Origin: a virus
Taxonomy: Duplodnaviria > Heunggongvirae > Uroviricota > Caudoviricetes
Reading direction: 5' to 3' (one strand)
IMG/VR virus record: IMGVR_UViG_2737471849_000007
DNA length: 22,608 bases
Shown: positions 1,099-22,608 of the stretch, in pieces
Layout of the letters: each line of letters opens with the position of its first letter
Numbering within the stretch: position 1 is the stretch's first letter
Notes under the pieces: model-generated
What the model was told of the DNA's origin: nothing
Databases searched by the model: none
What the model saw: only the letters and a program-made list of their open reading frames with translations
Position numbers and translations under genes: made by a program

Positions 1099-1156
1099 AA
1101 AAAGGGCGGCAGAGCAGTCACGGAGTAAAACTGATACCGCCAAACGTCACCAGAAA
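1099..1156 (-). ncRNA. dicF: DicF small regulatory RNA (antisense inhibitor of ftsZ translation)
   Basis: Reverse complement of 1099-1156 reads TTTCTGGTGACGTTTGGCGGTATCAGTTTTACTCCGTGACTGCTCTGCCGCCCTTTTT, matching remembered DicF and ending in a T-run; lies between ydfC and dicB. Ends approximate to a few nt. Confidence 0.85.
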
Positions 1157-2198: not shown

Positions 2199-2606
2199 TT
2201 ATTTTATTGATTTATTTTTACGCGCTTTAAGCATTTCTTCGAAGAGTTTGTTGAAGTTTTCTACTCTTGCGCGCATTTCAGACAGCAAGGCTTCCTGCTC
2301 GGAAGATGGAAGAGCATCGAATAATTCGATCAATTCTTTGTGGTTGGGAGTTAGCTCTGTTTCCACATGAAGTTCTTGTGCAGGCACTGGTGCCTTGTCT
2401 TCGTCACCAAACATTAGCCATGTAGGTGAGCACTTCAGAGCATCCGCTAAAGCAAACAATCGTTTTCCGACTGGCTGGGTTTCGTCTCTTTCCCATTGTG
2501 AAATTGTGACGTGAGCAACTCCAGCGAGGCGCGCGGCTTCTCGTTGTGTTAAGCGTAATTCTTTTCGTCGCGCCAGAACTCGCTGGCCCAGGGTTCTTGT
2601 ATCCAT
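2199..2606 (-). CDS. dicA: HTH (XRE-family) repressor DicA, 135 aa
   Basis: Track ORF of 135 aa with HTH segment LRLTQREAARLAGVAHVTISQWE; divergent from dicC with an operator palindrome between them. Confidence 0.9.
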   Translation of the reverse strand: MDTRTLGQRVLARRKELRLTQREAARLAGVAHVTISQWERDETQPVGKRLFALADALKCSPTWLMFGDEDKAPVPAQELHVETELTPNHKELIELFDALPSSEQEALLSEMRARVENFNKLFEEMLKARKNKSIK

Positions 2607-2655
2607 AGTTAGGTAATTCTAATTTTTCTTGACTTAGGTATCCCGCGCACAATAA

Positions 2656-2673
2656 TGTTAGAAAAGTCTAACA
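2656..2673. promoter_or_regulatory. Operator palindrome in dicA-dicC divergent promoter region
   Basis: Perfect inverted repeat TGTTAGA-aaag-TCTAACA between the dicA start (2606) and dicC start (2684). Confidence 0.6.
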
Positions 2674-2683
2674 AGAGGGGGAT

Positions 2684-2914
2684 TTGATGCTTAAAGTTGA
2701 CGCAATTACTTTTTTTGGCAGCAAAACAAAGCTTGCCAATGCCGCAGGAGTGAGGCTGGCAAGTGTTGCTGCTTGGGGGATACTGGTTCCTGAAGGTCGC
2801 GCGATGCGTCTACAGGAGGCATCTGGCGGGGAGCTTCAGTATGATCCCAAAGTTTATGATGAATATCGTAAGACGAAGCGGGCGGGGCGGTTGAACAATG
2901 AAAATCACTCCTGA
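2684..2914 (+). CDS. dicC: Cro-like regulator DicC (76 aa)
   Basis: Track ORF of 76 aa, divergent from dicA; length and position match remembered dicC. Confidence 0.85.
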   Translation: MMLKVDAITFFGSKTKLANAAGVRLASVAAWGILVPEGRAMRLQEASGGELQYDPKVYDEYRKTKRAGRLNNENHS

Positions 2915-3419
2915 ACAGGCTCGTGAGGCTCTGGATGCCTGGATATGTCGACCAGGAATGACACAGGAGCAGGCGACGATATTAATCACTGAAGCATTCT
3001 GGGCTTTGAAAGAGCGCCCGAACATCGATGTTCAGCGTGTCACAGATGAAGGTGGCGCGGTTGATCAGCGAGCGCTTGGTGTTAATCGAGTGAAGATATT
3101 CGAACGCTGGAAGGCTATCGACACCAGGGATAAGCGTGAAAAGTTCACGGCGCTAGTGCCTGCGATTATGGAGGCTATCCGGATTAGTGATTTCAGGTTG
3201 TATCGTGAAATTACTGACGGAAAAAGCATCACGTGCATGATCGCCGGGTTAAACAAAGAATATGGCGATGTGGTGGAGTCCGGACTGCTTTTTGCTGATC
3301 CTGCCGTAGTGGATCGTGAAACTGACGAACTTATAGAAAAAGCAATTGCTTTCAAGCTTGCGTATCGACAGCAATACCAACAAAAAGCTGGATGGAATTA
3401 TGAGCCTTCTTTTTGCTGA
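2898..3419 (+). CDS. Hypothetical early-region protein (173 aa), in the cII/YdaT-like position
   Basis: ATG-initiated track ORF overlapping the dicC stop by 17 nt; sequence is protein-like; function not recognised. Confidence 0.5.
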   Translation: MKITPEQAREALDAWICRPGMTQEQATILITEAFWALKERPNIDVQRVTDEGGAVDQRALGVNRVKIFERWKAIDTRDKREKFTALVPAIMEAIRISDFRLYREITDGKSITCMIAGLNKEYGDVVESGLLFADPAVVDRETDELIEKAIAFKLAYRQQYQQKAGWNYEPSFC

Positions 3420-4365
3420 ACGCCCACTGGTTATAAACACGCAGCTGGCAATGAAAATTGGCTTAAACGAAGCCATTGTTTTGCAACAACTGCACTACTG
3501 GTTGAGAGATACCAACTCCGGCATGGAATGTGATGGTGTTCGCTGGATTTATAACACAACGGAACAATGGCTGGAACAGTTCCCATTCTGGTCAGAGTCA
3601 ACGTTAAAGCGCGCGTTTGCAAGTCTGAAAACGCTGGGGCTTTTGCGTTGTGAAAAGCTCAATAAATCAAAGTGCGATATGACCAATTTCTACACGATCA
3701 ACTATGGGAGCGAGCTTTTAGATGGTGGCAAATTGAGCGAATCCATCGGTTCAAAATGCGCCGCTCCATCAGGTCAAAATGACACGATGGAAGAGGTCAA
3801 AATGAAACGCTCCATTGATTCAAAACGACCCAATGTCATCGGGTCAAAATGGCCTGATGATCTTACAGAGAATACAACAGAGATTACTACAGAGAATAAA
3901 AACACTTTTCGTCCGGAAGCTTCGCAACCGGACCCGCAGACGACTGAACAGGATTTTTTAACCCGGAACTCCGACGCGGTTGTGTTTAGTGCGAAAAAAC
4001 GCCAGTGGGGTAGCAGGGAGGATTTGGCGTGTGCGCAGTGGATCTGGGGGCGGATCGTGGGTCTCTACGAACAGGCAGCCAGTGATGATGGCGAGATCAT
4101 GCGACCAAAAGAGCCTAACTGGACTGCCTGGGCCAATGACGTGCGCACAATGCGGATGCTGGATGGCAGAAGCCACAGACAAATTTGCGAAATGTTTGGT
4201 CGGGTTCAGCGAGATCCATTCTGGGTAAAAAACATCATGAGCCCGTCAAAGCTCCGCGAAAAATGGGACGAACTGGTCATCCGCCTGGGACGTTCACCTG
4301 TACAGCGTTGTGTTAATCATATTTCTGAACCGGATACAGAAATTCCGCCTGGTTTCAGAGGATAA
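3400..4365 (+). CDS. Phage replication initiator / replisome organiser (lambda O-like; about 322 aa from ATG 3400)
   Basis: Track ORF 3346..4365; likely start is ATG at 3400 (MSLLFAERPLVINTQLAMKIGLNEAIVLQQLHYWL...). N-terminal winged-helix-like domain, central low-complexity linker carrying DNA iterons, C-terminal domain resembling DnaT-like/phage conserved C-terminus (DPFWVKNIMSPSKLREKWDEL). Family assignment by pattern recognition only. Confidence 0.6.
   Translation: MSLLFAERPLVINTQLAMKIGLNEAIVLQQLHYWLRDTNSGMECDGVRWIYNTTEQWLEQFPFWSESTLKRAFASLKTLGLLRCEKLNKSKCDMTNFYTINYGSELLDGGKLSESIGSKCAAPSGQNDTMEEVKMKRSIDSKRPNVIGSKWPDDLTENTTEITTENKNTFRPEASQPDPQTTEQDFLTRNSDAVVFSAKKRQWGSREDLACAQWIWGRIVGLYEQAASDDGEIMRPKEPNWTAWANDVRTMRMLDGRSHRQICEMFGRVQRDPFWVKNIMSPSKLREKWDELVIRLGRSPVQRCVNHISEPDTEIPPGFRG
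3741..3900. repeat. Putative replication origin: five iterons at 23-bp spacing plus three AT-rich 12-bp repeats
   Basis: Core (G)GTCAAAATG / GTTCAAAATG / ATTCAAAACG ends at 3758, 3781, 3804, 3827, 3851, each preceded by a CCATC-like motif; then ACAGAGAATA / ACAGAGATTA / ACAGAGAATA at 3865, 3877, 3889. A 23-bp period is not a multiple of 3, so the repeat is DNA-level. Confidence 0.6.
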
Positions 4366-4405: not shown

Positions 4406-4828
4406 GTGGCAAAAGTTTTTACACAAGAAGAGCGGGAAAAAATTAAATGGCAGGTGGTGGAACTCGTGCACCAGAGCGGCCGTGAGACGTTACGGCAACT
4501 GGAAGCTAAAACAGGTGCGACTAGATATCTGATGAGCGTTCTTGCCAGAGAGCTGGTAGCCAGTGGCGATGTATACAACTCCGGCTACGGGTTATTCCCC
4601 TCTGAACAGGCGCGTAAGGACTGGCAAAACGCCCGCAAAAAACTCTCGAGGGCAAAGGTGAAGAAACCTGCTGTGGTTGATCCGGACCTTATCTGGTCAT
4701 CACCTGACGGAGAAATACGTCGCTACGACAGTCGCCTAAACATAATCTGTCGCGAGTGCCGGAAGAGCGAAGTTATGCAGCGCATACTGGCTTTCTATCA
4801 GGGTAATTTTCAGGACGTGGCGCAGTGA
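4406..4828 (+). CDS. Hypothetical protein (140 aa), possibly winged-helix; GTG start
   Basis: Track ORF; GTG at 4406 with AAGGGGGA upstream; stop overlaps the next gene's GTG start (GTGA). Confidence 0.5.
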   Translation: MAKVFTQEEREKIKWQVVELVHQSGRETLRQLEAKTGATRYLMSVLARELVASGDVYNSGYGLFPSEQARKDWQNARKKLSRAKVKKPAVVDPDLIWSSPDGEIRRYDSRLNIICRECRKSEVMQRILAFYQGNFQDVAQ

Positions 4829-5181
4829 GTGCACCGGCAACCATTCTTGATATGTGCTGTGGCAGCCGCATGTTCTGGTTCGATAAGTCTGACGAACGGG
4901 CGATATTTAGCGATATCAGAAAAGAAGGATACACATTACGCAATGGGAGACGCTTGATTATCAGCCCTGACATTATCGCAGATTTTCGTGCATTATCATT
5001 TGCAGACGCATCTTTTTCGATGGTTGTATTAGACCCTCCGCATCTTGAGCGTGTTGGTGATAACGCCTGGATGGGAAAGAAATATGGACGGCTGAATAAA
5101 GATGCCTGGCGTGATGATTTGCGACAGAGATTTAAAGAAGCTTTTCGGGTGTTGAGGCCGCACGGCGTTCTGATTTTTTAA
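4825..5181 (+). CDS. SAM-dependent DNA methyltransferase-like protein (118 aa as encoded; possibly truncated by in-frame TAA)
   Basis: Motif I-like ILDMCCGSR and motif IV-like VVLDPPH, then RVLRPHGVLIF; the frame stays open 29 codons past TAA (5179-5181) to TAA at 5269-5271. Confidence 0.5.
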   Translation: MSAPATILDMCCGSRMFWFDKSDERAIFSDIRKEGYTLRNGRRLIISPDIIADFRALSFADASFSMVVLDPPHLERVGDNAWMGKKYGRLNKDAWRDDLRQRFKEAFRVLRPHGVLIF

Positions 5182-6513: not shown

Positions 6514-6847
6514 ATACAGCGAACTCCATTGGTTTAGTTGGATATTTACTGTGCTGGACAAAAACGGTTTGCGGGGAAATCTTAGTTAAGTAGAATGACT
6601 GCGGGTGCTTGAGGCTATCTGCCTCGGGCACGAACACCAACGGCAGGTAGAGAAAAGCCCCAGTTAACATTACGCGTCCTGCAAGACGCTTAACATTAAT
6701 CTGAGGCCAATTTCATGCCAGACACATGTAGGTTAGCCTCTTACGTGCCGAAAGGCAAGGAGAAGCAGGCTATTGTTAACACCAAGCTGTAATGTCCCCT
6801 TTGAACCATTCTAAAATGTCCCCAGACAATTCTCTGGGGGATTTTTC

Positions 6848-12467: not shown

Positions 12468-12767
12468 AAAAATTCCTTAATACTGATAACTTGGCGCACT
12501 ATACACACGTTCCTGAAGAAAGCTATAGTTTTTTGATGGGGTTGAAGATGGCTGGATGTCTAAAATAAACATTGCTTCATATGTTCAACTATGCGTTAAT
12601 GATTGCGTCGGTTTGAAGAACAGACGATATACGAAGTAGTTTACTAAAGCAGTTCTCATTTCAGGTGTTATTCACTTATTCCTTCTTTGAGTCTCTCCAA
12701 TTAAGTACGAAGTCGTTTCTGTTATGCAAACCATTTATGCCGAAAGGCTCAAGTTAAGGAATGTAGA

Positions 12768-12983
12768 ATGTCAAATAAAATGACTGGTTTAGTAAAATGG
12801 TTTAACGCTGATAAAGGTTTCGGCTTTATTTCTCCTGTTGATGGTAGTAAAGATGTGTTTGTGCATTTTTCTGCGATTCAGAATGATAATTATCGAACCT
12901 TATTTGAAGGTCAAAAGGTTACCTTCTCTATAGAGAGTGGTGCTAAAGGTCCTGCAGCAGCAAATGTCATCATTACTGATTAA
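12768..12983 (+). CDS. cspB: Cold-shock protein CspB (71 aa)
   Basis: Track [41 protein letters not shown]... with canonical RNP1/RNP2 motifs; AAGGAATG RBS; long AT-rich 5' leader. Confidence 0.92.
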
Positions 12984-13267
12984 AATTCATCGCTCGTCTG
13001 TATACGATAACGAAGAAGGCTGATGCCTGAGTAGAGATACGGACAGAGTAGTGAATATTGGATCTCTTTAATAAAAAGTAAGGAGGTCCAATACATGAAA
13101 CAATGGCTAGCATATTTGGCAAAATCTTAATCAGGAAAAGTATGCTAACCATTGTGGTGAAGTGCAGGTTTGCTGCATGAATAGTTTTACAGCAGAAGCT
13201 AACTGCTGGCATGGCAAAACAAAGTGCGTAAGTGGATGACTCCCACAAAAAGCACCACAATCTCAAA

Positions 13268-15292: not shown

Positions 15293-15655
15293 GGTAATAT
15301 TAAATCGGAACATTTACATCGCGGAATGTAAAATTTAAATAAAAAGGACTCTTCCATGAGCCAAAATTCCTGAAATCTTAAGGGTAAGATAAAAGGTCTT
15401 AATCAGAATGACACGTTATTATTAATAAATAAAGCTATTCTTTCATTGCTGTGTTTTTCTTTACAAAAGTAATCCTTGCTATGGGTGGTTAATCATGCGT
15501 TAATGGTGTTCTGGTTTGTTACAAATTTATCTGAAGCAGTCATTGTTATAATTTTATTATTTGTACCTCTTGAGATTTCCTTGTTGGTTTTTCTCTCTGA
15601 TATTTTTTTTCGGACCATTCTGCCCAAGGGCTAATTTCTTCAAAAGGTAATAATT

Positions 15656-15868
15656 ATGTCTAACAAAATGACTGGTTTAGTGAAATGGTTTAACCCTGAA
15701 AAAGGTTTTGGTTTCATCACGCCGAAAGATGGCAGCAAAGATGTGTTTGTCCATTTCTCAGCAATTCAGAGCAACGATTTCAAAACATTAACTGAGAATC
15801 AGGAAGTTGAATTTGGTATTGAGAACGGACCTAAAGGTCCTGCCGCTGTTCATGTAGTGGCGCTTTGA
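15656..15868 (+). CDS. cspI: Cold-shock protein CspI (70 aa)
   Basis: Track [41 protein letters not shown]...; CspA-family RNP motifs. Confidence 0.92.
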
Positions 15869-15956
15869 GGTAGACAATATTACAAACCATATTCACTTTA
15901 GATGCCCGTGTTGTCATGGTTCCCAGTATAGAACATCATCTTTTGATGTTTCTGAC

Positions 15957-16866: not shown

Positions 16867-17277
16867 TTAGCGTGGTAAGATCTGTGTAGTTTTCTGGATG
16901 CTTTCAGTAAATAGTAATGAATTATCAAAGGTATAGTAATATCTTTTTTGTTCGTGGATATTTGTAACCCACCGAAAAACTCCTGCTTTAGCAAGGTTTC
17001 TTCTGTATTCCTGAAATGTGATCTCTCTGGATTTCAGCTTATTAGAGGTCGTTTCTATAAGATGCCTATCCTTTGAAAATTTGACAGACACAATGTTTTT
17101 TAGGCCCTTTAATAACACTGTATTATCATTTTTTAATACAATATGAACATTCTCTGTGGCTAAATAGTAAATGTAATGTGAGACATTGTGACGTTTTAGC
17201 TCAGAATAAAACCATTGATAGTTTAAATCGTTTCGAACTTTATCAAATATTTGTTTAAAAATGACTACCTGATCCAT
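16867..17277 (-). CDS. ydfO: DUF1398-like prophage protein YdfO (136 aa)
   Basis: Internal ATG of track ORF 16867..17292 gives 136 aa [28 protein letters not shown]... Confidence 0.78.
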
Positions 17278-17334
17278 AGATAAACCTTCCATGTGATATG
17301 AGGGGGCGTAGTCTGCACGATTATCTAAATTGCT

Positions 17335-17508
17335 TCAATCTGGTCTGACCTGTTTTCTGAGCAATTCAGTAATGTCACTCTTTTCTTTGTTTGCTTCAGA
17401 AGAAACTCTTTTTTCTGAGCACAGTCTCCGGCGGCAGGCTTCAATGACCCAGGCTGAGAAATTCCCGGACCCTTTTTGCTCAAGAGCGATGTTAATTTGT
17501 TCAATCAT
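17335..17508 (-). CDS. Putative ribbon-helix-helix small protein (57 aa)
   Basis: Minus-strand [60 protein letters not shown]; N-terminus fits an RHH (Arc/CopG-like) beta-strand plus helix; weak RBS; overlaps the 5' end of the stfQ ORF; below track cutoff. Confidence 0.35.
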
Positions 17509-18726
17509 TTGGTTAGGAAATCAACGTTACCTTCTGCCCGTAAGGTGAATGGTAAGGCGCTTTCAGCGGATATAACACTGACGCCGAAAGATATTGGTAC
17601 GCTTAACTCAACAACAATGTCATTCAGCGGTGGTGCTGGTTGGTTCAAATTAGCAACGGTAACCATGCCACAGGCGAGTTCTGTTGTTTCAATTACGTTG
17701 ATTGGTGGCGCTGGATTTAACGTGGGGTTATCTCAACAGGCAGGTATATCTGAACTTGTTTTACGTGCAGGTAATGGTAATCCGAAGGGGATTACTGGTG
17801 CTTTATGGCAGCGCACATCGACAGGGTTTACAAATTTTGCCTGGGTCAATACATCTGGTGATACTTACGATATTTACGTTGCAATCGGAAATTATGCGAC
17901 TGGTGTAAATATTCAATGGGATTATACCAGTAATGCCAGCGTGACGATTCATACGTCACCAGCATATTCTGCTAATAAGCCGGAAGGGTTAACGGACGGT
18001 ACAGTTTATTCACTCTATACGCCATCAGAGCAGTTTTATCCGCCTGGCGCACCAATCCCGTGGCCATCAGATACCGTTCCGTCTGGCTATGCCCTGATGC
18101 AGGGGCAGACTTTTGACAAATCTGCATACCCGAAACTTGCAGCCGCTTATCCGTCAGGCGTGATCCCTGATATGCGTGGCTGGACGATTAAGGGCAAACC
18201 TGCCAGTGGTCGGGCCGTATTGTCTCAGGAACAGGACGGCATTAAATCGCATACCCACAGCGCCAGCGCATCCAGTACGGATTTGGGGACGAAAACCACA
18301 TCGTCGTTTGATTACGGCACTAAATCCACGAATAACACTGGTGCGCATACCCATAGTTTAAGTGGCAGCACGAATGCAGCTGGTAATCACAGCCATAGAG
18401 ATGGCCGTCGATTTAACCCCAGTGTTTTTAAAGATACTTATCAATATGGTTATACAAGCTCAGGTCAAAATACCTGGGGTGTACAAGGCTCAGTAGGTAT
18501 GTCTACGGGGTGGTTAGCGAATACCAGTACAGATGGTAATCATAGCCATTCACTGTCCGGCACAGCAGCATCTGCAGGTGCACACGCGCATACTGTCGGT
18601 ATTGGTGCTCATACGCACTCCGTTGCGATTGGTTCACATGGACACACCATCACCGTTAACGCTGCTGGTAACGCGGAAAACACCGTCAAAAACATCGCAT
18701 TTAACTATATTGTGAGGCTTGCATAA
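17476..18726 (+). CDS. stfQ: Side tail fibre protein, C-terminal remnant (start uncertain; TTG at 17476)
   Basis: Track ORF of 416 aa, Gly/Ser/Thr-rich with repeated His-containing motifs (GAHTHS, GNHSHS, GAHAHT, GSHGHT) typical of tail-fibre receptor-binding tips; directly followed by the tail-fibre assembly gene. Confidence 0.68.
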
Positions 18727-19301
18727 TGGCATTCAGAATGAGTGAACAACCACGGACCATAAAAATTTATAATCTGCTGGCCGGAACTAATGAATTTATT
18801 GGTGAAGGTGACGCATATATTCCGCCTCATACAGGTCTGCCAGCAAACAGTACCGATATTGCACCACCAGATATTCCTGCTGGCTTTGTGGCTGTTTTCA
18901 ACAGTGATAAGGCATCGTGGCATCTCGTTGAAGACCATCGGGGTAAAACGGTTTATGACGTAGCGTCAGGGGACGCGTTATTTATTTCTGAACTCGGTCC
19001 GTTACCGGAAAATGTTACCTGGTTATCGCCGGAAGGGGAGTTTCAGAAGTGGAACGGCACAGCCTGGGTGAAAGATGCAGAAGCAGAAAAACTGTTCCGG
19101 ATCCGAGAGGCGGAAGAAACAAAAAACAGCCTGATGCAGGTAGCCAGTGAGCATATTGCGCCACTTCAGGATGCTGTAGATCTGGAAATCGCAACGGAGG
19201 AAGAAACCTCATTGCTGGAAGCCTGGAAAAAGTATCGGGTGTTGCTGAACCGTGTTGATACGTCAACTGCACAGGATATTGAATGGCCAGCACTGCCGTA
19301 G
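18726..19301 (+). CDS. tfaQ: Tail fibre assembly protein (191 aa)
   Basis: Track ORF; ATG overlaps the stfQ stop (TAATG); adjacent to the Pin invertase gene. Confidence 0.85.
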
Positions 19302-19398
19302 GGTAAAACATATAAATTCTATAATTAGATGTATCTTTCCATTTACGGCAAGGAAGGGGGCTTGGAAGACGTAAAGCATCTCACACCGAGATTATTTT

Positions 19399-19989
19399 TT
19401 ATATGTCAGGTGTCTGAAGTTTTGCTTTGGCTCTTAAAATGGTTTGCCGCGAGGTTTTGAATTCCCGGGCAATGGCACTTATACTTACACCTGACTTAAT
19501 TCGTTCGAATACCACCTGTTTCTGTTCTTCATTTAACACAGGTGGTCGACCAAAACGTTTCCCTGCGCCGCGGGCTCTTACTATCCCGGAATGAGTGCGT
19601 TCAAGTAAAAGGTCTCGTTCAAATTCAGCGACTGCTGAAATTACGTGCATCATCATTTTTCCTGTTGGACTGGTCAGGTCAATGCCCCCCAATGCTAAGC
19701 AATGCACTCTGATACCTGTTTCGGTCAGTTGTTCCACTGTTTTCCTGATATCCATTGCATTACAACCAAGGCGATCCAGTTTTGTCACAATCAATTGATC
19801 ACCACATTTCAGGCGAGCAAGCAACCGGTTAAAACCAGGACGCTCACTGGTTGCTGCTGAGCCGCTAATGTGTTCTTCGATTATTTGCTGAGGTTTGATT
19901 TTAAAACCTGCACTTTCGATTTCCCGGCGTTGATTTTCGATGGTCTGATCCAGCGTTGATATCCGACAGTAAGCAAAAATTCGAGACAT
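19399..19989 (-). CDS. pinQ: Serine-recombinase DNA invertase Pin (Hin/Gin/Cin family), 196 aa
   Basis: Track [25 protein letters not shown]... with catalytic Ser motif and C-terminal HTH. Confidence 0.92.
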
Positions 19990-20305
19990 AGTGAGACTCT
20001 ATACGAAATTGGTGTTCATATCATAATGCATCTCAGAAAATAATTTTGATTATTTTTGTGCATATTTGTATGTACACGTTCGAAAATAAACGAATGCGTA
20101 TGCAACCCCGTAATTTTGGTGAGACCCAAAATCGATTTTGTGAAAAATGGCTTTAACTCGGTTTGTTTTTCGAGTTCCGGGCGGACTCAAGGAAGAAGAA
20201 TAGTGTTGCGTGTTATTTTAACCAGATTTCAAGTTGTTTGATCGTGGAAAAGTGGAGCAAAATGTTGTTAAAGTGGAAAAATGATAAAAAAGTAAGTTTA
20301 TTATA

Positions 20306-20539
20306 TTACATTTTACCATTTAAATTTTGGTTGTCTTTAAGAACTGATATCGCTGTTTGTAATAATTCTTTGTTATCCAGCCATGATTTTTTCTTTATGT
20401 TTCCTTCAATGTAATCAAGCAATGTTCTGGTATTGATAGGTCTTCCCTGTTTTGCTACTTCCACTACAGCATCCCCTAGGATAATTCTTACTTCAGGAAG
20501 CTGCGCAGGGAACCACTTTAGGGTGTCTTTTGATTTCAT
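20306..20539 (-). CDS. ydfK: Prophage protein YdfK (77 aa)
   Basis: Internal ATG of track ORF 20306..20572 gives 77 aa MKSKDTLKWFPAQLPEVRIILGDAVVEVAKQGRPINTR... Confidence 0.78.
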   Translation of the reverse strand: MKSKDTLKWFPAQLPEVRIILGDAVVEVAKQGRPINTRTLLDYIEGNIKKKSWLDNKELLQTAISVLKDNQNLNGKM

Positions 20540-21324
20540 GAAGATATTCCTTAAAATATTATTGAGTTTCATTGCGATATTGTATGTCTGATTCAGGATA
20601 TGTTGACTTATACATCGGTTTTGTCTGGGTTATTGGATATGCCAATCCCTAATTTTATTAGGGCATGACTAAAAATGCTGAATATGATAAGGAGAGAAGT
20701 GATTATCAGTATGCTGTTCATATAGCCTCGAATTAGTAATGTGTTATATATGATATAGTTGACAATTTTTATCTTGGGTGTTCTTAAAGTTCGTAGATAA
20801 ACATTGTCGTTTCAGGTATACAGGAATGCTAACAGGTGGCAGCAAAAATCAGGCGGTTTATGGCGCAAGCTGAAGCGGCAACTGCAAACTATCTTATGCA
20901 GAGACTCTACACGGATTGGGTTTAAAAGTATACATAGATAACAGTTTTTATCTGAAAAAGAAAAATATCAAGGTGATATAGCCTATATGCCTTTGATGCG
21001 GAGGAATGAATGTGATGGGAGTGATGTATCTGAATAGTTGAAAAACCGCAGACACGCCTTATGCAAGAACGTGCTGCGGTTGGCTGGTAAATTTTTCGAT
21101 AGTGTGAGTATTGAATGATTTCCAGCCGTTCTTGATTTTACGCATAAATCCATGAAAAAACTACTTATCTGTTGGGGAGTTTTTTTGGGGCATATATGGG
21201 ACAGAAATAGGCCCCAGATAGACACTGAGATCGAACTTAGGATGCTTTTTAAAAAATGCAACTATCTGAAAAAACCTAGAAAACGCCAAGGAAACCACAG
21301 GATGGGAAAAAACACCTGTGAATT

Positions 21325-22608
21325 ATGGATTTCCAGTTATATTCGCTCGGCGCAGCGTTGGTGTTTCATGAAATATTTTTTCCTGAATCATCAACGGCAA
21401 TGGCGTTAATTCTGGCAATGGGAACCTACGGTGCAGGTTATGTCGCGCGTATTGTCGGAGCATTTATTTTCGGCAAAATGGGCGACAGAATAGGGCGTAA
21501 AAAAGTGCTCTTTATTACCATCACCATGATGGGGATCTGTACCACCTTAATTGGTGTGTTACCGACCTATGCACAGATTGGTGTTTTTGCCCCCATCTTG
21601 CTGGTGACGCTGCGTATTATTCAGGGGTTGGGTGCAGGTGCGGAAATTTCCGGTGCCGGTACGATGCTGGCGGAATATGCACCAAAAGGTAAGCGCGGAA
21701 TTATCTCCTCATTTGTAGCTATGGGAACTAACTGCGGAACCTTGAGCGCAACGGCAATCTGGGCCTTTATGTTCTTCATTCTCAGTAAAGAGGAACTGCT
21801 GGCGTGGGGATGGCGTATACCGTTCCTGGCGAGCGTTGTCGTGATGGTCTTTGCTATCTGGTTACGTATGAATCTGAAAGAAAGCCCGGTCTTTGAGAAG
21901 GTTAATGACAGCAACCAACCCACAGCAAAACCTGCACCTGCTGGTAGCATGTTCCAGAGCAAATCCTTCTGGCTGGCAACAGGGCTGCGTTTTGGTCAGG
22001 CGGGTAACTCCGGGTTAATTCAGACTTTCCTTGCAGGCTATTTAGTGCAGACGTTATTGTTTAACAAAGCAATTCCAACAGATGCATTGATGATTAGTTC
22101 GATTCTCGGCTTTATGACCATTCCGTTCCTTGGTTGGTTATCCGATAAAATTGGTCGCCGGATCCCGTATATTATTATGAATACCTCCGCGATTGTGCTG
22201 GCATGGCCAATGCTTTCTATCATTGTAGATAAAAGCTATGCCCCGAGCACCATTATGGTTGCACTGATTGTGATTCATAACTGTGCGGTGCTGGGATTAT
22301 TTGCTCTGGAAAACATTACCATGGCAGAAATGTTCGGCTGTAAAAACCGCTTTACCCGGATGGCTATTTCTAAAGAAATTGGTGGTCTTATCGCTTCCGG
22401 TTTTGGTCCTATCCTGGCGGGTATTTTCTGCACCATGACGGAATCCTGGTATCCGATCGCCATTATGATCATGGCATATTCAGTAATTGGTTTAATCTCT
22501 GCGCTGAAAATGCCAGAGGTGAAAGACCGTGATTTAAGTGCGCTGGAAGACGCTGCGGAAGATCAACCGCGTGTTGTAAGAGCTGCGCAACCTTCCAGAA
22601 GTCTGTAA
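21325..22608 (+). CDS. ydfJ: MFS metabolite:H+ symporter YdfJ, N-terminally truncated by the prophage insertion
   Basis: Track ORF of 427 aa ending at the window end; the MFS loop motif GKMGDRIGRKKVL sits only about 45 aa from the start, so TM1 is missing; many TM helices follow. Confidence 0.8.
   Translation: MDFQLYSLGAALVFHEIFFPESSTAMALILAMGTYGAGYVARIVGAFIFGKMGDRIGRKKVLFITITMMGICTTLIGVLPTYAQIGVFAPILLVTLRIIQGLGAGAEISGAGTMLAEYAPKGKRGIISSFVAMGTNCGTLSATAIWAFMFFILSKEELLAWGWRIPFLASVVVMVFAIWLRMNLKESPVFEKVNDSNQPTAKPAPAGSMFQSKSFWLATGLRFGQAGNSGLIQTFLAGYLVQTLLFNKAIPTDALMISSILGFMTIPFLGWLSDKIGRRIPYIIMNTSAIVLAWPMLSIIVDKSYAPSTIMVALIVIHNCAVLGLFALENITMAEMFGCKNRFTRMAISKEIGGLIASGFGPILAGIFCTMTESWYPIAIMIMAYSVIGLISALKMPEVKDRDLSALEDAAEDQPRVVRAAQPSRSL

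Follow-up and report, generated by a model that had tools for sequence, protein, structure and literature searches.

The 22,608-nucleotide (nt) viral DNA record IMGVR_UViG_2737471849_000007 (referred to here as the window, meaning this stretch at its full length) is a Qin-type lambdoid prophage of Escherichia coli, and it carries at 3721–3899 what is probably (about 0.8 by our estimate) a phage-type replication origin located inside the gene of its own initiator (3400–4365, plus strand; ATG at 3400; 321 amino acids (aa)). The proposed origin consists of an array of 23-bp iterons and a block of tandem 12-mers, the latter being the candidate for a sequence-specific unwinding element. The origin itself would be of a known type; the conserved 12-mer is the interesting part.

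The iteron array (3721–3859) consists of six contiguous 23-bp semi-palindromic units at 3721–3743, 3744–3766, 3767–3789, 3790–3812, 3813–3835 and, after one extra T, 3837–3859. The first unit is degenerate, agreeing with the consensus at 15 of 23 positions, and is represented by a good copy in relatives. The unit consensus, CATCGGGTCAAAATGACCCGATC, is nearly its own reverse complement and can be written by halves as CATCGGGTCA-AAA-TGACCCGATG, so that each unit is a dyad-symmetric site with an A-tract at its centre. The repeat search returned five copies with start-to-start distances of 23, 23, 23, and 24, and the core GGTCAAAATG (at most one mismatch) ended at 3758, 3781, 3804, and 3851, with a weaker copy, ATTCAAAACG, ending at 3827. 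An initial annotation of this DNA, made from the sequence alone, had noted five copies ending at these same positions; the positions were reproduced by the repeat and core searches, and the number of copies is corrected to six by the degenerate first unit. The identity at lag 23 was 0.54, a value that none of 20000 shuffles equalled (maximum 0.46 over lags 10–40), and the array is the most periodic 139-nt stretch of the window. Tandem Repeats Finder did not report the 23-bp array, because its copies are too divergent, and reported only the 12-mers. Elsewhere in the window, isolated sites resembling GGTCAAAATG (12909, 14584, 15970, and 18463) were at chance level, and a second periodic signal near 20.3 kb was T-rich low-complexity DNA with no repeat family.

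The 23-bp repeat is not a protein repeat, because its units start in differing codon phases (0, 2, 1, 0, 2, and 2 for the six units). Units 1, 4, and 5 of the five-copy count are in a common phase, and S-I-G/D-S-K is encoded three times. The initial annotation had proposed that the 23-bp period is out of codon phase and that the repeat is selected at the DNA level. Both proposals agree with the phases given above, and the second also with 35 distinct close relatives, in which the core TCAAAAYG is repeated at 23-bp intervals with drifting spacers between the copies.

Three tandem 12-mers of the form (T/A)ACAGAGAnTAC follow on the plus strand at 3864–3875, 3876–3887, and 3888–3899 (spacing 12 and 12 in the repeat search; Tandem Repeats Finder score 54), and we propose them as the DNA unwinding element (DUE). 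They are in codon phase and encode TENT, TEIT, and TENK. The block has a G+C content of about 30% and a sense strand of 69% purine, and it is the least stable 40-mer of the gene, with a free energy (dG) of −45.6 against a mean of −56.4 (standard deviation 3.7). Of 44 initiator clusters, 29 have the 36-mer of lowest stability in the gene overlapping the array. The initial annotation had described three AT-rich 12-bp repeats at this place; three 12-mers do follow the array, and they are better described as a strongly conserved motif than as merely AT-rich DNA. An Rfam scan over 3600–4000 gave no match at E ≤1. A search of the accessible literature for the tandem 12-mer DNA or the encoded peptide found no paper, and we could not find this conserved tandem described.

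We examined the corresponding genes of other phages to compare the repeats. When a single N-terminal domain (N-domain) was used as the query for related loci, only relatives of 98–99% identity were returned. Homologues found by protein similarity alone carry 23-bp-period arrays directly after the part encoding the N-domain in the Klebsiella phage vB_VIPKPNMC05 and the Erwinia phage PEp14, and a looser array stands at that place in the Pseudomonas phage USP_18. The array cores vary with the N-domain, being GGTCAAAATG in Klebsiella, GAGGGCAAATTGCCCTC in Erwinia, and GAGGGCAATTTGC in Pseudomonas, and more distant members have repeats of unrelated sequence that keep the position and a period of 21–24 bp. 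The same period and place with a different sequence is the pattern expected for initiator-binding iterons that co-evolve with their DNA-binding domain.

The 12-mer shows another pattern. All four of the homologues examined first have the same 12-mer despite their differing iterons, and a pattern scan was made for the 12-mer because it was shared among these four and the iterons were not. The exact tandem ACAGAGAnTACnACAGAGAnTAC was found in at least 120 viral contigs. Among the 120 matches listed, all with the ACA-GAG version, 118 encode an in-frame T-E-x-T at about residue 155 of an open reading frame (ORF) of about 300 aa, and the ORF matches the N-domain profile in 110. The N-domains of the carriers range from 99% identity down to a level undetectable by phmmer, and their C-terminal domains (C-domains) are of at least four kinds that are not related to one another, including lambda-O-like, Phg_2220_C, and DnaT DNA-binding domains. 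The tandem also occurs in at least 120 species-representative genomes, among them those of Proteobacteria, Firmicutes, Cyanobacteria, Chloroflexi, Gracilibacteria, Fibrobacteres, and Nitrospirae, as well as in plasmids and in 121 deposited phage genomes, Stx-converting phages included. A periodic array lies just upstream of the 12-mers in 89 of the 120 species genomes listed (lag 23 in 55 and lag 22 in 20), and these arrays are unrelated in sequence. The motif, with GAG for Glu, is present in all of the staphylococcal and related low-GC phages that were identified through protein homology alone, and their neighbouring Glu codons are GAA.

The codon usage of the 12-mers was determined in 44 clusters at <70% N-domain identity, counting only the units that were not imposed by the search pattern. 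The third codon positions were kept in 50, 48, and 47 of 51 units, and position 8, a second codon position, was free (A10/G4/T21/C16), giving the residues N, I, T, and S. The GAG:GAA ratio was 46:1 in the 12-mers, compared with 420:510 in the rest of these genes (p 1e-14), and the ratio of ACA to other Thr codons was 36:1 against 196:528 (p 1e-18), p-values that are inflated by shared ancestry and by homogenisation of the tandem copies. A GAA-coded version was found in 55 viral contigs, of which one matches the N-domain profile and one more looks initiator-like by its upstream repeats; a version with a Thr codon other than ACA was found in nine contigs, two of which (one phage) have it in initiator genes. 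These patterns suggest that the 12-mers are under constraint at the DNA level. In the Bacillus phage vB_BthS-HD29phi (L253), copies lie 11 and 13 nt apart at nt 420–470 of the gene, and the middle copy is read in another frame (QRLS). L068, L344, L334, and L070 are among further loci that have copies with off-spacing or copies beside iteron-like repeats with no long ORF spanning them; motif copies of the latter kind may belong to non-coding origins or to decayed genes.

The initial annotation had called the surrounding gene a replication-initiator gene, and this identity is supported by a full-length match to PHROG 391, 'replication initiation O-like' (E 1.5e-90; aa 17–321 against profile positions 11–298 of 298). 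PGAP annotates the protein in an E. coli genome as 'phage replication protein O'. Pfam and NCBIfam scans of the initiator and its halves gave no useful match except a weak NCBIfam DnaT match of the tail; for aa 1–117, Pfam gave nothing even at E 10, Phage_rep_O included, and the Pfam RepA_N profile (PF06970) did not match at E ≤10. The initiator is modular, because each of its halves has its own, differing set of PHROG matches among phage initiator families, and the superfamily of phage initiators to which it belongs is large, mosaic, and not covered by Pfam.

The domains were assigned on an AlphaFold model, built from a shallow alignment, and its confidence scores (pLDDT, predicted local distance difference test). 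The N-domain (about aa 10–105; 3427–3714, plus strand; pLDDT 72–87) has the winged-helix fold of the RepA_N/DnaD type, not the fold of lambda O, and is presumed to bind the iterons. A linker predicted to be disordered (about aa 108–175; 3721–3924, plus strand) encloses the whole origin, and the segment of very low confidence (pLDDT 24–34 over aa 110–175) coincides exactly with the part encoded by the iterons and 12-mers. The C-terminal helical domain (about aa 180–297; 3937–4290, plus strand; pLDDT 66–84) is homologous to the C-domain of lambda O: BLASTP aligned aa 147–294 with lambda O 135–270 at 34% identity (E 2e-26) and gave no similarity for the N-terminal part. Matches with tblastn were found in lambda, 434, and Stx phages. 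The last 21 residues, VQRCVNHISEPDTEIPPGFRG (4300–4362, plus strand), form a tail that is predicted to be disordered and closely resembles the C-terminus of E. coli DnaT (phmmer against the PDB chains 2ru8, 6aep, and 9zbt); the weak NCBIfam DnaT match covers positions 160–179 of 179. An [IV]PxGFRG ending closes 43 of 208 related initiators. Because the same ending is found with different C-domains, the GFRG-type tail appears to be a short, portable motif directed at a host partner. The preprimosome paper, consulted for the role of the extreme C-terminus of DnaT, does not resolve it. The Shigella phage VIT_AJPSC (L254; 1039–1980) has the same lambda-O-like C-domain and GFRG tail, attached to another kind of N-domain. 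The repeats of this phage are in codon phase with a period of 15 bp (DPSKS-like), 12-mers are absent, and the boundary of the shared module lies right after the 12-mer position.

We compared this arrangement with known origins. The initial annotation had likened it to lambda; the likeness holds for an origin in the middle of the gene between two domains and for a homologous C-domain, and fails for the N-domain, which is RepA_N-like, and for the loader gene, which is lacking here. Ori-lambda and its variants in Stx phages likewise lie mid-gene between a DNA-binding N-domain and the C-domain, have 4–6 dyad-symmetric iterons with an A-tract placed 20–24 bp apart, the last of which is followed on its 3′ side by an AT-rich, purine-rich tract, and stand in the pR operon after cro and the gene in the cII position. 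The layout of the lambda origin within O has been described (PMC7466680); the annotated iterons start at 39034, 39054, 39078, and 39101 (spacing 20, 24, and 23 bp), at O codons of about 117–145, and are followed by an AT-rich tract. The array of the present gene occupies codons 108–153 of 321, which is the same place. The present gene departs from lambda in its N-domain, which is not homologous, in its unrelated iteron sequence, in the lack of a P gene, in having a DnaT-like tail, and in a conserved 12-mer tandem that takes the place of a generic AT tract. Neither iterons nor origins are mentioned in a paper on non-lambdoid Stx replication regions.

The iterons also resemble the RepA_N pattern of semi-palindromic direct repeats with inverted repeats converging on a poly-A tract (PMC7145576): the consensus CATCGGGTCA-AAA-TGACCCGATG has semi-palindromic repeats that meet at a poly-A, centrally in the gene. 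In pSK41, four Rep boxes are central in rep, the encoded linker is dispensable, and the C-domain is host-specific (PMC5703833). From plasmid initiators of the RepA_N type whose origin is internal (pSK41/pTZ2162 RepA and Vibrio PLE RepA), the initiator described here differs in that the Pfam RepA_N profile is not matched, in its phage or prophage rather than plasmid context, and in having a C-domain that is lambda-O-like rather than DnaG-binding. No published description of tandem ACAGAGAnTAC 12-mers was found for pSK41-type origins. The 12-mers invite comparison with the RK2 13-mers (TrfA), the F 8-mers (RepE), and the DnaA-trios, where the initiator binds one strand in a sequence-specific manner (PMC10602881). 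Like the present block, the DUEs of RK2 oriV and F oriS and the DnaA-trios of oriC are made up of short tandem repeats, which lie in the least stable DNA and adjoin the double-strand sites of the initiator. They differ in that the initiators belong to unrelated families (Rep_3 and DnaA), in motif and period, in that the repeats are here also coding, and in that one motif here serves initiators with wholly different iteron specificities. The replisome organizer G38P of the Bacillus phage SPP1 binds repeats in its own gene beside an AT-rich region. SPP1 is different in that the phage encodes its own loader and helicase. The oriL-dependent replication of SPP1 has been described (PMC5737612).

We infer iteron binding, unwinding, and helicase loading from the anatomy, homologies, fold, and conservation patterns described above. 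A pR-like sigma-70 promoter (TTGACT-16-AATAAT; 2629–2656, plus strand), located solely by a consensus scan, stands upstream of dicC/cro, and rightward early transcription from it would produce the 321-aa initiator; the predicted transcript would cross the ydaT-like gene, the initiator gene, and the origin. By analogy with lambda, we infer that this promoter may have a role in activation of the origin. Dimers of the winged-helix N-domain would bind the six iterons, bending or wrapping the DNA, and the resulting stress would open the adjoining three 12-mers (ACAGAGAnTAC), the least stable DNA of the gene. One strand of the unwound 12-mers would probably be held sequence-specifically, as by TrfA on RK2 and RepE on the DUE repeats of F; this sequence-specific reading is proposed because the motif is kept while its surroundings vary. 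The lambda-O-like C-domain and the DnaT-like tail would then recruit the host helicase machinery. The purine-rich transcript may contribute, and the linker encoded by the origin DNA may be dispensable, by analogy with pSK41 Rep.

The gene order of the window is the exonuclease VIII fragment, ydfD, dicB, the DicF RNA, and ydfC/B/A, then a cI-like repressor (2199–2606, minus strand), dicC/cro (2684–2914), a ydaT-like gene (2898–3419; labelled 'cII' in the deposited Escherichia phage PhiR42_1 genome), and the initiator gene. The initiator ATG lies 20 nt within the 3′ end of the ydaT-like gene (overlap 3400–3419), which suggests coupled translation. No gene for a P/DnaC-type helicase loader was found directly downstream of the initiator, where the window (4406–5181) contains a DUF977 gene (4406–4828) and a truncated methyltransferase; relBE, hokD, Q, and the lysis genes come after these. 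The methyltransferase fragment is 118 aa long, and the annotation of a near-identical E. coli genome gives it as a frameshifted pseudogene. Rfam matches above the gathering score were obtained for the DicF small RNA (1104–1155, minus strand), the sok antitoxin RNA (6603–6774, with hokD), two cspA-type thermoregulator leaders (12607–12999 and 15510–15895), and the IS009 RNA (19069–19267). When the segment 3300–4400, which covers the initiator gene, was used as a query, 2801 of the 5426 complete E. coli genomes gave a match, and in 1745 of these the match covered at least 80% of the query.

The window is colinear with the PhiR42_1 genome at 96–99.8% identity as far as 17520, with two breaks, namely a divergent immunity region and an extra 1-kb PhiR42_1 segment in a region with mobile element and transposase annotations. 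Beyond 17520 all head and tail genes are absent, of which PhiR42_1 has about 25 kb. The truncated end (16867–21333) contains, after ybcV (DUF1398), a tail-fibre fragment (17476–18726), a tail-fibre assembly gene (18726–19301), and a Pin-type invertase (19399–19989, minus strand); 20309–21333 matches the opposite end of the PhiR42_1 record, and a host major facilitator superfamily transporter gene begins at 21325. On this gene content the prophage is defective, because the head and tail genes after 17520 are missing, in line with its earlier description as cryptic. No paper on PhiR42_1 was found in the literature. The initiator gene differs from that of PhiR42_1 at two bases only. At 3673, T for C puts Cys in place of Arg92 (R92C) within the wing loop of the winged-helix domain; the residue is Arg in 79 of 79 close relatives, and Arg is at least 90% conserved at this position in the alignment. 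At 3818, A for G changes the iteron 4 core from GGTTCA to GATTCA, a change common to 3 of 79 relatives. Both may be signs of decay in a defective prophage, in which the cis elements look largely intact and the initiator may be weakened. The initial annotation had suggested that the replication module may still be origin-competent; the origin might conceivably fire, perhaps when a related phage provides the initiator.

Other explanations of the repeats were weighed against an origin. If the repeats were a byproduct of a low-complexity protein linker, selected in the protein and with no cis function in the DNA, then the codon phase of the 12-mers, the TExT in 118 of 120 viral contigs among the matches listed, the predicted disorder of the segment, and the common phase and SIGSK-like peptides of units 1, 4, and 5 would all be accounted for; the 23-bp units as a whole, however, fall in three codon phases and encode unrelated peptides. 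In the 12-mers the synonymous positions are fixed while one non-synonymous position varies freely (N, I, T, S), and the GAA and non-ACA versions are nearly absent from initiator genes, yet TExT coded in these ways is common in other proteins. Together with the copies that have 11- or 13-nt spacing, stand in another frame, or lie outside ORFs, and with an origin-encoded linker in pSK41 that is dispensable for the protein (PMC5703833), these findings make a purely protein-level cause extremely improbable. The array might instead bind the initiator and be kept mainly as a decoy or control site, acting by titration, by handcuffing, or by interference with superinfecting phages of the same replication type. 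Ectopic copies of the lambda origin and fragments of the replication region do block growth of the cognate phage (PMC4488673, PMC3349717), and such a role would suit a module that is kept although the head and tail genes are all lost, that is matched in 2801 of 5426 complete E. coli genomes, and whose initiator has R92C in the window. It would, however, be a secondary use of a structure that is the origin in intact relatives; nearly the same gene, 2 nt apart, sits in PhiR42_1, which was deposited as a complete phage genome. We consider this account quite unlikely.

It is also conceivable, though we think it unlikely, that the iterons are the origin and that the 12-mers are conserved for another reason, either as a shared recombination junction at which modules of N-domain and iterons are swapped onto different C-domains, or through an action of the transcript (for example a purine-rich RNA that forms a stable R-loop or primer). 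The 12-mers stand exactly at a mosaic boundary, with differing N-domains and iterons upstream and at least four kinds of C-domain downstream, and VIT_AJPSC shares the C-domain from right after the 12-mer position. Exchangeability would nevertheless hardly fix an 11-nt sequence from Firmicutes to Cyanobacteria and Chloroflexi. The 69% purine sense strand inside a pR-type transcript would favour an action of the RNA, but no Rfam family matches the region, and the R-loop variant is compatible with an unwinding role rather than opposed to it. Both the low stability of the duplex and the location, immediately 3′ to the last iteron, suit an unwinding element.

Several observations weigh against an origin with a sequence-specific DUE, in addition to the inflation of the codon p-values given above. 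The 12-mers are just moderately AT-rich (about 30% G+C), and 3.4% of the 40-mers in the window are less stable. Three N-domain homologues, in the Xanthomonas phage HXX_Dennis (L250) and the Vibrio phages OTA22 (L251) and 1.213.O (L252), have no canonical 12-mer. The copy in the window itself may not function, given R92C, the change in the iteron 4 core, and the degenerate first unit. Because some N-domain homologues have no canonical copy, the 12-mer is evidently widespread in the initiator superfamily and not obligatory. HXX_Dennis and OTA22 have iterons of their own, and OTA22 has a looser AGAG-TAA-rich tract at the place of the 12-mers.

We tentatively suggest, as a possibility that falls somewhat short of probable, that the tandem 12-mer is a hitherto undescribed, pan-bacterial origin element, which would serve as a sequence-specific signal for unwinding or loading and would be kept unchanged as the iterons and the recognition surface of the initiator diversify freely. 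The 12-mer would in that case be read by a conserved surface of the N-domain on single-stranded DNA or by a universally conserved component of the host replisome. If this suggestion is true, temperate phages of Proteobacteria, Firmicutes, Cyanobacteria, Chloroflexi, and candidate phyla would share a portable 'start here' signal, and the 12-mer would be a simple marker of their origins. If the 12-mer is a sequence-specific unwinding or loading element, the site bound by the initiator and the site of duplex opening would be separated across many phyla, and origins could be located by a pattern search. The iteron array provides a prophage module that is very common in E. coli, and of which related forms occur in Stx-converting phages, with a concrete candidate origin open to testing, and it would be relevant to prophage induction, to interference between prophages, and to the design of phage-derived replicons.

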